DNA from: Candidatus Helarchaeota archaeon
GTDB lineage: Archaea; Asgardarchaeota; Lokiarchaeia; Helarchaeales; RDOG01
Assembly: GCA_019058315.1 (NCBI GenBank)
Contig: JAHPZH010000001.1
Span: 128,001 to 192,000 of the forward strand
Direction of reading: 5' to 3'
DNA: 64,000 bases
The notes below the pieces were generated by a model, which was given only the letters and a program-made list of their open reading frames with translations, did no database searches and was not told the DNA's origin. Shown one piece after another: positions 45,564-47,938 of the stretch. Position numbers and translations under genes: made by a program. Position 1 is the stretch's first letter. Each line of letters begins with the position of its first letter.

Positions 45564-45938
45564 TTATTCCTCCTCTAACCCAAATTTCTCTTCTAATTTA
45601 TCTATTAATTCTAAATCAACTGTTTCTTGAAAATGAGAGAGATATAATTTCGGGTTTTTTAATATTATTTTATGATTTTTCTTTACCCAAAGAAAAAAAT
45701 TAAATAACATTTTAAATCCATTAATTAAATCACCATTATTTTTTGTTTTCGGCTTTTCGCTCACTTCTTTTTCGGATTCATCAATATAAGCCGTTAATGC
45801 TCCTCTAATTAAGTCAGTTACATTATTAAAATTCATTTCTTCTGCTTTTTTAGTTAAAATCTCCTTGGAAATTTGAGTTCTAAATGTTATAGGCTTCTTT
45901 TTTTCTTCATCTTTTAATTTTGGTCTGCCACGATTCAT
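45564..45938 (-). CDS. Ribbon-helix-helix-like DNA-binding protein
   Basis: MNRGRPK..KKPITFR (beta ribbon) ..KEILTKKAEEM..NVTDLIRGALTAYI (two helices), typical RHH/CopG pattern. Confidence 0.7.
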   Translation of the reverse strand: MNRGRPKLKDEEKKKPITFRTQISKEILTKKAEEMNFNNVTDLIRGALTAYIDESEKEVSEKPKTKNNGDLINGFKMLFNFFLWVKKNHKIILKNPKLYLSHFQETVDLELIDKLEEKFGLEEE

Positions 45939-45949
45939 GCTATAATTAT

Positions 45950-46060
45950 TGTCTTACACATATTTAAATGTGTCTTACACAAAATATCATTTGTAATACA
46001 AAAAAATTTTTCAAAGTATCCATTTTTTAATGTAAGACGGAAATTCCTTTTTGTAAGACA
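45950..46060. promoter_or_regulatory. Array of five TGT-N3-ACA/G boxes overlapping the TATA box of the RHH gene
   Basis: TGTCTTACACA at 45950 and 45971, TGTAATACA at 45992, TGTAAGACG at 46031, TGTAAGACA at 46052; TTTAAATA (minus strand) at 45961-45968 between the first two. Confidence 0.75.
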
Positions 46061-46079
46061 AAAAATTATGTGCTAGATC

Positions 46080-46410
46080 AAGTATCAAGAAAAAATTTGA
46101 CCTCAAGAAATTTTAATTTTGATCATAATCAAAATCCTGAAAAAAATTAATTCAAAAAAAAATACATAATCCAGAAAAATTTGATCTTGAATTAAGTCTG
46201 AACTTGAAAAAAAATTTGTTAAAAAAAAAATTTTTTTAGTTTGTAATCTCAAAAAAATTTTAAATTGAAAAATCCAAATTTCAAAAATTTTATTCAAAAA
46301 AAATCTCAAAAAATCTGTCTTCAAAAAATGTTAATTATGTAAATCTTGATTTTGAAAAAACTTAGTCTCAAAAAATTTTATTTTAGAATTAAAAGATCGA
46401 AAAAAATTTC
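46080..46410. repeat. Strand-biased A-tract low-complexity segment (repeated YTCAAAAA / TGAAAAAA)
   Basis: YTCAAAAA near 46151, 46248, 46280, 46293, 46305, 46320, 46367; TGAAAAAA near 46138, 46205, 46353. Confidence 0.6.
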
Positions 46411-46530
46411 TTATGAGCATGATTCATAATTTAACCTTGATTTTATTAATTTTCGATTATATGATAAAAATAAACTGGTTTATTCTAAAAATTTTAACAA
46501 AAAAATTATGAAGATATATATATCTCCTCG

Positions 46531-46920
46531 TATTTTATTCTATTACTGATTCTCTTATTTTTGAGATTGGAATGATCCTTATGGAACATATGACGTAGCG
46601 AATAGGATTCCGGAAATTCAAGAAATCACTTTAGGATCAAAATTTTAATCTAGTGATTTAAAGGTCAATAAGTATTACATATTTATGACTTTATAAATTC
46701 CTGGATCTTATTCAGCGAGTATCGTTCGGAGGTTAAATAAGCCAAAACAAGGCTACTATGCGATTCGTTGAATAATAAAAGGATCAAATTACTAAAAAAT
46801 TAATTCTATAAATTACAATAGAGATTTTTCTAATATGGGTTAGGCTACACCATTTACCGCATTCTAAGCGCAATATAGGAAGGTTTATAAACAATGGACT
46901 GATCATAGAATACAAAATAA
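46531..46920 (+). ncRNA. Candidate large structured non-coding RNA of unknown class
   Basis: Hand-found helices: 46536-46543/46905-46912, 46573-46580/46779-46786, 46600-46618/46695-46713, 46623-46630/46652-46659, 46660-46674/46680-46692, 46709-46720/46763-46774, 46740-46743/46751-46754, 46823-46836/46873-46885; G-U pairs favour the + strand; no ORF of 60 aa or more. Confidence 0.6.
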
Positions 46921-46989
46921 ATCAAAAATGAAAAAAAAGAAATAAAATAATGAAATGTCTCTAAAAACTGAAAAATAGGTGGTGAAAAA

Positions 46990-47211
46990 TTGGTAAAAAA
47001 AATCAAAGTCAAAGTACTCTCGGTAAATGGACATGAAACTTATTCAGTCGCAATTCAAAAAATTCCTGAATTTATGGAATCACAATTAGACAATAATCAT
47101 GTTGCATATTGTGAACCTATGAAAAAGATTGTTGAAACTGAAACAGAACTAGAATATATCTTAGAAATGGTTAGTGAAATTACAATCATCCCTAAAATTC
47201 GTGGAGGTTAA
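46990..47211 (+). CDS. Ubiquitin-like (beta-grasp, ThiS/MoaD/SAMP-like) small protein ending in Gly-Gly
   Basis: 73 aa; N-terminal IKVKVLS..GHETYSV strands; C-terminal EITIIPKIRGG; TTG start after AGGTGGTGA. Confidence 0.65.
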   Translation: MVKKIKVKVLSVNGHETYSVAIQKIPEFMESQLDNNHVAYCEPMKKIVETETELEYILEMVSEITIIPKIRGG

Positions 47212-47212
47212 T

Positions 47213-47938
47213 ATGAAAAATCAGAAAAATAAACAAATTCGCTTAAAATTATCTCATGATTGGTCCAAGTTTAATGGAAAAGAATTTGAAAAAGTTAGAA
47301 ATCAACGAAATTTTCAGATTGGTGAAATTTTAAAGAAAGCAGATCAATTTTATTTGACCACAAAAAAGGGTCTTAAAGAAATTACGAAAAAATTTGCTTA
47401 TAAAAAAATAATCAAACATGAAAAGATTAACCCTGAGGAACTTACGAAAGGTTATTTTCCTAGAAGCGGATATCGAAGATCATTTGGTTCTAAAAAGAAA
47501 ATTGTGATAAAACATAACAAAACACCTGGCCTATACTGCTATGAACGCTACTTGGGAGCATCAATTAAAGCAGGAATTTCAATAACTCTCCATACAAGTA
47601 ATAAAAAAGTTAAAGATCTCATTAAAATATTTAATGCTCGAATTGGTCGTCCATATCAGCCACCAACATTTTCTCCTGAAGCTATAAACAAGGCAAAGAA
47701 AGAATTGAAAAATTTGATAAAAATTAATAATCAATTAAAAGTTGTAAATGATAATTTGGTGGTTACTAGTAAAAATGGAAGAATTTATAATATAAATCTT
47801 CTTTCTGGAGCTGTTTCATCTAAAAAGAAAAGTTATATTTGTACTTGGAGTTCAACCACAAGACTACCTTTACCTGATGAAATTATTGCTAAAGCTTTAA
47901 CTATTGCTTATAAACCAAAACAAATTAGAACGCTATAA
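47213..47938 (+). CDS. Basic hypothetical protein, translationally coupled to the ubiquitin-like gene
   Basis: ATG 47213 one base after the upstream TAA, preceded by GGAGGT; Lys-rich; C-terminal VVTSKNGRIYNINLLSG..YIC..LPLPDEIIAKAL..IRTL. Confidence 0.75.
   Translation: MKNQKNKQIRLKLSHDWSKFNGKEFEKVRNQRNFQIGEILKKADQFYLTTKKGLKEITKKFAYKKIIKHEKINPEELTKGYFPRSGYRRSFGSKKKIVIKHNKTPGLYCYERYLGASIKAGISITLHTSNKKVKDLIKIFNARIGRPYQPPTFSPEAINKAKKELKNLIKINNQLKVVNDNLVVTSKNGRIYNINLLSGAVSSKKKSYICTWSSTTRLPLPDEIIAKALTIAYKPKQIRTL

Follow-up and report, generated by a model that had tools for sequence, protein, structure and literature searches.

A conserved non-coding element of a new family lies beside a ubiquitin-like/E2-like gene pair in a small clade of Asgard archaea

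A gene gap in an archaeal genome raises the question of whether the sequence in front of a small ubiquitin-like gene is an RNA, a control region or only spacer. We analysed a 64-kb stretch of DNA (the window) from a genome of 5.8 Mb in 12 contigs with about 30% G+C. An earlier note, made from the letters of the window, had described positions 46531-46920 as a candidate for a highly structured non-coding RNA of about 390 nt. The genome is archaeal, with RNase P RNA and SRP RNA of archaeal type found on contigs other than that of the window, and the closest relatives of the adjoining genes come from sources named Candidatus Helarchaeota, Hodarchaeota or Promethearchaeota archaeon, which are Asgard archaea. 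The element sits in a 1.05-kb gap between a leftward RHH-like gene, which ends at 45938, and a rightward gene for a ubiquitin-like protein (UBL), and a gene for a basic partner protein begins one base past the stop of the UBL gene. The element is about 330-340 nt in size with a G+C content above that of the surrounding spacer. Between the RHH gene and the element, 46000-46420 is 16-18% G+C with many imperfect A/T-rich direct and inverted repeats, and this repeat stretch is not conserved in homologous loci.

46541-46883, + strand: candidate RNA, a conserved non-coding element, marked by conservation, single copy, non-coding sequence and the absence of an Rfam match
46990-47211, + strand: UBL, 73 aa, ending in RGG, with the Gly-Gly C-terminus kept in homologs
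47213-47938, + strand: basic partner protein, 241 aa, pI 10.3, with a predicted beta domain, a K/R-rich linker and an E2/RWD-like domain that carries an invariant Cys210

Known RNA families were searched for using Rfam 15. At gathering thresholds there was no match in the whole 64-kb window, inside the element there was none at E values up to 10, and the 11 homologous loci described below gave none at E values up to 1. The sole Rfam match at E <= 10 across 45900-47100 was rnk_leader at 46035-46122, which is outside the element. ARAGORN found 0 tRNA or tmRNA genes in the window. Archaeal RNase P RNA (RF00373, C5:112710-113080, 158.8 bits) and archaeal SRP RNA (RF01857, C10:11707-12014, 95 bits) were both detected elsewhere in the same genome; as neither model matches here and both RNAs sit on other contigs, the element is neither of the two. 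The earlier statement that the stretch carries no RNase P, SRP, intron or tRNA signature was thereby confirmed. The literature that we searched held no description of large conserved non-coding RNAs specific to Asgard archaea.

BLAST-type DNA searches of 40 relatives returned A-rich low-complexity matches only, and a cleaner DNA query over the order matched the genome of the window alone. Homologs were reached by searching with the partner protein and then fetching the contigs. The element was found in this way at 11 loci of Helarchaeota-type Asgard archaea, always 5' of the UBL and partner genes, and it is conserved specifically there, upstream of the UBL homologs to which the earlier note had pointed. 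Four loci form a close group consisting of the window, L032, L035 and L037, the last three with partner proteins 81%, 70% and 53% identical to that of the window, respectively. In this group the alignment with the window covers 360 nt, beginning right behind a TATA-like box and ending shortly ahead of the UBL gene; in L037 the flanks are unalignable with the window and the element aligns. The distant group consists of seven loci (L025, which equals L038, in G005; L027, which equals L040, in G003; L052 in G006; and L054, L057, L058 and L059) with partner proteins of 28-34% identity. Here the gap 5' of the UBL gene is 550-900 nt long and contains a conserved stretch of about 340 nt.

Neither nhmmer nor covariance models gave cross-detection between the close and distant groups. 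The two groups have in common their position and size, a run of T close to the 5' end, a pair of TATA-like boxes spaced about 315-370 nt and an 11-nt motif, TTAGGATCRAA, 118-136 nt past the first box.

46631-46641, + strand: motif TTAGGATC(A/G)AA, the only sequence common to both homolog groups

The distance of this motif from TATA box 1 is 118-121 nt in the close group and 132-136 nt in the distant group. It is exact or has at most 2 substitutions in 10 of the 11 loci (the window has TCA for TCG) and is interrupted in L058, and its purine covaries with the pyrimidine in the 3' strand of the local hairpin, as A-U, G-U or G-C. Since the groups do not detect each other, their homology rests on synteny, size, two TATA boxes and this one 11-nt motif, and on these grounds we regard them as probably homologous.

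The distribution of the element follows that of the partner gene. The element is single copy in its own genome (G000, close type). The order is represented by seven genomes. The distant-type model R1 gave one match each in G003, G005 and G006, all of which carry the partner gene, and G001, G002 and G004 have neither element type and no partner gene. Element and partner gene therefore strictly co-occur in these seven genomes. Among the 151 genomes of the class that were searched, the close-type model matched only G000. We conclude that the element is real, and that it is a conserved, non-coding, single-copy member of a new family linked to the UBL/E2-like pair in a small Asgard clade.

Selection on the element was assessed by comparing the window with L032 and L035. 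Nucleotide identity over 46524-46883 was 85.8%, as compared to 84-86% for the UBL coding sequence, 80-88% for the partner coding sequence and 48-78% for the 200 nt upstream. Conservation of the element thus equals that of the adjacent coding sequences and is above that of the flanks. It is strongest in a block with no variable column after 46727 until 46811 in these three close sequences, whose coding genes differ by 12-20%.

46728-46810, + strand: 83-nt block identical in the window, L032 and L035, which holds GGAGGTTAAATAAGCC and the AGCC/GGCT hairpin
46740-46743 with 46751-46754, + strand: AGCC/GGCT hairpin within the identical block

Conservation at this level could in principle come from a small protein-coding gene of which the element is a relic. 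Six-frame translation does show one unusually open frame (from GAT at 46565 on, 46565-46774) with two TAA stops in the window, and in L035 (1611-1820) the same frame runs over 72 codons without a stop, with CAA where the window and L032 have TAA. Read by eye, the motif of the distant loci can also be taken as a short ORF with third-position differences. The pattern of change does not fit such a relic. Substitutions are spread evenly over the codon positions (11:10:10, and 28:28:26 with L037 included), L037 has indels of 1, 2 and 11 nt inside conserved sequence, the frame has no ATG, GTG or TTG at its head in the window or L035, and the window and L032 share both TAA stops yet remain conserved downstream of them. 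A protein-coding gene or recent pseudogene was rejected because of the even substitutions, the frame-breaking indels and the missing start, and we consider descent from a coding gene very improbable. The element is non-coding.

The short ORF readings deserve description in their own right. In most distant loci (L025:845-870 and the equivalents in L027 and L052) the motif is readable as a 7-codon mini-ORF, ATG TGG ATA TTA GGA TCG AAN followed by a stop. By eye, an ORF of 5 to 7 codons starts from the ATG of TCCACATG and often ends in the conserved TAG of TAGCG, and several differences in these mini-ORF readings fall at third positions, again by eye.

Folding of the window sequence was evaluated against dinucleotide shuffles. 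Each of the helices quoted in the earlier note was found in the sequence, at the position given for it or at most 1 base off, and the minimum-energy fold of the window element includes most of them. The + strand had a folding energy of -83.8 kcal/mol against -66.9 +/- 6.4 for 100 shuffles (z -2.65, 2 of 100 as good), and a second fold run gave z -3.1 with none of 200 shuffles as good. The - strand gave z -0.95 with 100 shuffles and -0.65 with 200. As background, 49 evenly spaced 390-nt segments of the same 64-kb window were folded; these had a mean z of 0.03, a standard deviation of 1.02 and a minimum of -2.61, with 3 of the 49 at z <= -2. The + strand thus does somewhat better than its shuffles, but its z is only at the edge of the window background. 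Because of this, and because the region was picked by eye, folding energy by itself is not decisive. In the homologs z-scores were weak, with a mean of about -1.4 on the + strand and -1.2 on the - strand. The argument that G-U pairs single out the + strand as the one selected at RNA level is accordingly not general, as homolog z-scores are similar on both strands.

Such values bring up the reading that the element is functionless AT-rich spacer which folds by chance. Its z lies within the tail of the window background and, as described below, the window-only fold is not conserved, both of which would be expected of spacer. Neutral spacer would not be conserved like coding sequence next to unalignable flanks, nor keep a fixed place in 11 loci and occur together with the operon, and this reading is scarcely credible.

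Comparison with the homologs separated the helices that are kept from those that are not. In the window-only fold of 131 pairs, changed pairs remained canonical in 10 of 32 cases in L032, 7 of 28 in L035 and 19 of 69 in L037. Slid controls matched or beat this fold in pair preservation, so the full nested fold is not conserved. The individual helices fared differently, as counted by the pairs that can form in each close sequence.

Terminal helix, 8 pairs: window 8, L032 6, L035 5, L037 2
12-bp helix, 12 pairs: window 12, L032 12, L035 11, L037 7
Closing helix, TGATCCTT (46573-46580) with AAGGATCA (46779-46786), 8 pairs: window 8, L032 8, L035 8, L037 7
Long helix, about 46598-46615 with 46698-46716, + strand, enclosing the hairpins 46623-46659 and 46660-46693, 19 pairs: window 17, L032 17, L035 17, L037 14

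The AGCC/GGCT hairpin is kept in the homologs. The outer stem of the first hairpin (46623-46659) has 8 of 8 pairs in the three close sequences and 3 of 8 in L037, where a different hairpin takes the place of the second one (46660-46693). In the long helix, 7 of the 17 consensus pairs are invariant, 5 have one-sided changes from G-U to A-U or G-C and 1 is changed on both sides. The helices that stood up to this comparison are therefore the closing helix, the long helix, the AGCC/GGCT hairpin and, in three close sequences, the two hairpins, and those that fell are the terminal helix and, in L037, the 12-bp helix. A structured RNA of about 390 nt closed by a terminal helix, as first proposed, is not borne out, since conservation is lacking in the outer helix, the 12-bp helix and the 3' domain. 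Judged from these alignments, only about half of the described folding appears to survive comparison with relatives.

What is left is a candidate 5' domain. Its consensus was built for the close group using RNAalifold and covariance model R2 with 61 pairs.

46573-46786, + strand: consensus 5' domain, predicted to consist of the closing helix, the long helix, two hairpins and the GCC/GGC hairpin

In the R2 consensus 93.0% of cells are paired as compared to 28-48% with slid partners, 7 pairs are changed on both sides as compared to 0-3 in slid controls, and the covariation score of 0.099 (slid controls 0.017-0.040) was reached by none of 500 shuffles; this consensus and that of the distant group were each counted on the same 4-7 related sequences that gave them, which inflates the contrast with controls. 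The call for covariation is thus answered in part, as the 5' domain shows some, in a consensus taken from the same related sequences, and the window-only fold fails. The block 46728-46810 is mostly unpaired in the consensus structure. For the 3' third of the element (46793-46883) there are RNAalifold predictions only, and these are weak.

The distant-group consensus, model R1, contains only two solid helices, a long-range GGGGAA/TTTCCC helix with an extension of T-run and A-run, and TCCACATG/CATGTGGA. The latter is invariant save in L058, in which the 5' strand is altered and pairs in a shifted register. In these helices 83.8% of cells are paired as compared to 40-53% in controls, with a covariation score of 0.207 as compared to 0.05-0.13, and the inflation just mentioned applies to these figures too. 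No consensus fold was obtained for the variable part that the TCCACATG/CATGTGGA helix encloses. The structure conservation index was low in both groups, 0.48 in the close and 0.10 in the distant group. A closed multi-branch 5' domain is thus plausible and partly supported by the comparison of sequences. Three further pairing or motif ideas were tried by eye and dropped: in the distant loci, a pairing of ATCCAC with a further GTGGAT block, which only about 4 of the 7 have; CACCA (46848-46852 region) pairing with the Shine-Dalgarno sequence of UBL, which is lost in L037; and a reading of GGGG...TCCAC as an origin recognition box, in which the parts are in the wrong order.

The mode of change inside the helices bears on whether the element acts as RNA or as DNA. 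A DNA-level control region would consist of protein-binding sites around two tandem promoters, with the helices as by-products of inverted-repeat operators. A long invariant stretch with little predicted pairing (46728-46810), the two TATA-like boxes, the similar minimum-energy z on both strands in several homologs and an enrichment of GATC-containing GGATC motifs in the close group (4-5 against 1.1-1.6 expected, P 0.003-0.05) would all suit such a region, but the GATC enrichment is absent in the distant group. Typical archaeal promoters are compact, and about 340 bp of continuous conservation at the level of coding sequence is far longer than these. Several switches between G-U, A-U and G-C, together with double changes, keep pairing in a manner that is meaningless for duplex DNA, and variable hairpins are swapped for other hairpins. 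The wobble transitions count only at the RNA level and so favour the RNA reading. We think a DNA-level control region unlikely, while giving it real weight.

Two promoter-like boxes frame the element.

46513-46523, + strand: TATA-like box 1, putative promoter of the element, conserved at its 5' edge
46884-46897, + strand: TATA-like box 2, TTTATAAACAATGG, probable promoter of the UBL operon, from alignment with the distant loci

Box 1 is the AT-rich TATA-like run that had been noticed just upstream; it was found at 46513-46523 and is kept in the homologs. It reads GATATATATAT in the window and L032, AATTTAAATTT in L035 and GATATTTATAT in L037, and in the 7 distant loci TTTAAATA or TTTATATA is located at the 5' edge of conservation, directly past the stop of a same-strand upstream gene. 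Box 2 aligns with CTGAAAC-N-TTTAAATA-NNA-YGG, which is invariant in the 7 distant loci, where purine-rich GAAA(C) precedes the box. Two BRE/TATA-like boxes flank the element in all loci. From their sequence we infer that box 1 is the promoter of the element and box 2 that of the UBL operon. Taken with what is known of archaeal promoters, the boxes suggest transcript starts near 46545 and near 46915. With starts at these positions, the last 40 or so bases of the 390-nt stretch described at the outset would be operon promoter and 5' UTR, and they are probably operon promoter rather than RNA structure.

The same layout could belong to a ligand- or signal-sensing 5' leader of the riboswitch kind, in which the box 1 transcript enters the operon and alternative folds set expression with no protein partner. 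The position immediately 5' of the operon is kept in all loci. No conserved oligo-T terminator was seen ahead of box 2 in the window or in the homolog sequences read, so that read-through into the operon is possible. The candidate 5' domain, closed and multi-branched, has invariant unpaired blocks. The window contains mutually exclusive helices, with the 3' strand of the long helix used in the 12-bp helix as well, but this alternative 12-bp helix has only 7 of its 12 pairs in L037. Further against a leader, box 2 is strong and invariant and at every locus separates the element from the start of UBL, and with a BRE/TATA-like box in this position the operon mRNA need not include the element. Nor was an expression platform found: neither a terminator hairpin nor a conserved helix that sequesters the ribosome-binding site was seen in the window or homolog sequences, and no riboswitch family of Rfam matched in the element or the homologous loci. 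A sensing leader is in our judgement an unlikely explanation, if one that merits attention.

The proteins encoded downstream offer a possible ligand. UBL homologs at 10 loci end in AGG, HGG or RGG with GH, EP and GG invariant, and no Pfam family matches UBL. The partner is very basic, with 54 K+R against 16 D+E. It had no Pfam or PADLOC match and no usable language-model match, and no nuclease, RT or Cas domain was recognised. Its structure model consists of a confident beta domain (8-68), a disordered K/R-rich linker (71-125) and an alpha/beta domain (130-241). Foldseek searches of the PDB with two partner models gave nothing at E <= 0.001, with a best value of 0.33 for one of the two. Kinship with DUF4132/DUF7737 proteins was rejected, as the atlas shape matches reach a TM of only 0.25-0.33.

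Residues 152-240 of the partner have a predicted topology like that of an E2/RWD fold, with a helix at 155-171, four strands, the invariant C210 and a helix at 220-233 in that order, and Cys210 lies in the loop preceding a conserved helix (AKALTIAY). The N-domain (residues 1-72; window 47213-47428) was folded alone with a pLDDT of 87. The best 50 chains for 152-240 were mostly E2, RWD and UEV proteins (Z 3.6-5.1, rmsd 3.0-4.7 A, 70-92 residues aligned) and the four best fold matches of the N-domain were all ribosomal protein eS4 (Z 5.2-4.3, rmsd 2.6-4.9 A, 59-68 residues; next Z 3.8), where matches at Z of about 5 or less may reflect an arrangement that is common. From these models the partner looks like an eS4-like beta domain followed by a Lys/Arg-rich linker and an E2/RWD-like domain, and the eS4 likeness is a weak hint that the N-domain may bind RNA.

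A model of the UBL-partner complex reached an ipSAE of 0.78 as compared to 0.01 for the best control, a mark that 58 of 80 solved complexes but also 2 of 110 mismatched pairs attain (rough counts, made with our own alignments); if similar complexes have already been solved, the pass may come from likeness to them. At least 93% of the contacts are the same between runs, and the partner has a pLDDT of at least 79. The contacts join UBL residues 65 and 67-73 to partner residues 209-219 and 222-241, and the partner is predicted to bind the Gly-Gly tail of UBL beside Cys210. Pfam recognised no E1, RING or JAB gene among the neighbouring genes scanned.

The reading that we prefer, tentatively and at somewhat less than an even chance, is that the element is a clade-restricted RNA which binds the basic partner, either in feedback control of the operon or in a scaffolding role. 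In this proposal, 46541-46883 would either be the gene of a non-coding RNA or make up the promoter-proximal stretch of a long transcript, with transcription beginning about 25 nt past box 1 (46513-46523) and directed at the UBL operon. The element would be inherited along with the minimal ubiquitin-like/E2-like gene pair. The 5' domain and the long invariant, mostly unpaired blocks could form a binding platform, for which the most plausible ligand would be the very basic partner encoded 300 nt downstream, with its eS4-like domain and Lys/Arg-rich linker. Bound in this way, the RNA might regulate expression of the operon by feedback, or it might serve as scaffold or gate for the UBL/E2-like reaction. 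Transcription of the element, its strand, the ends of the RNA, protein binding and an effect on the operon are all things that we infer. A bolder version, in which the element is the RNA subunit of a hitherto undescribed RNA-dependent ubiquitin-like system of Asgard archaea and a dedicated, roughly 330-nt RNA encoded next to them scaffolds, targets or switches UBL and an E2-like enzyme with an eS4-like, RNA-binding domain, we hold to be a long shot.

Compared with known systems, the element resembles operon-linked cis-regulatory leaders in being conserved, non-coding and directly 5' of co-inherited genes that it would control, and in its candidate multi-branch domain, long-range closing helix and invariant unpaired blocks. 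As with the autoregulatory leaders of ribosomal proteins, which mimic rRNA sites, a downstream product with a weakly eS4-like domain is a candidate binder. Unlike cis-regulatory leaders, the element belongs to no Rfam family, has a separate promoter-like box before the first gene and no expression platform found, and at about 340 nt is longer than most leaders. It shares with omega-RNA/TnpB-IscB, retron msr/msd-RT and tracrRNA-Cas9 a promoter-like box of its own and a position beside a basic protein to which it is tightly linked and with which it co-occurs, but it differs from these systems in being single copy without mobile-element features and in having a partner that looks E2-like. With archaeal RNase P RNA and SRP RNA it has in common the single copy, the 300-400 nt class and a G+C content above that of the surrounding spacer; unlike them it is patchy in distribution and not universal.

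The ubiquitin-like systems of Asgard archaea are relevant to how ubiquitin signalling arose in eukaryotes. If the element is transcribed, it would found a new family of RNA, bound genetically to a minimal UBL/E2-like pair, and provide a concrete and testable case in which RNA helps to regulate or operate a ubiquitin-like module. Should it prove to be no more than a DNA control region, it would be of an ordinary kind, yet unusually long and well conserved.

Public sequencing runs included no RNA run listed as containing the stretch. Contigs from four sediment or mangrove DNA runs were compared with the window, and the contig of run X6 differs at 4 positions. Run X2, a sediment metagenome, gave a 354-nt contig over 46579-46932 with 18 differences from the window, and a second, more divergent contig that spans 46595-46670; more natural variants of the close type therefore exist. 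In L035 the 5' part of the element is present a second time, as a partial copy (1481-1578; nhmmer E 3.6e-7, covariance model E 0.005) directly upstream of the full one. L054 (about 1000-1200) and L058 (about 930-1150) have an extra conserved stretch between TATA box 2 and UBL, which by eye resembles a small basic ORF. In the distant loci L025, L027, L052, L054 and L057 the gene order is an unknown gene of 235-400 aa, the element, UBL, the partner and a two-cluster ferredoxin of 81-85 aa, often followed by an HMGL-like gene of the homocitrate/isopropylmalate synthase type.
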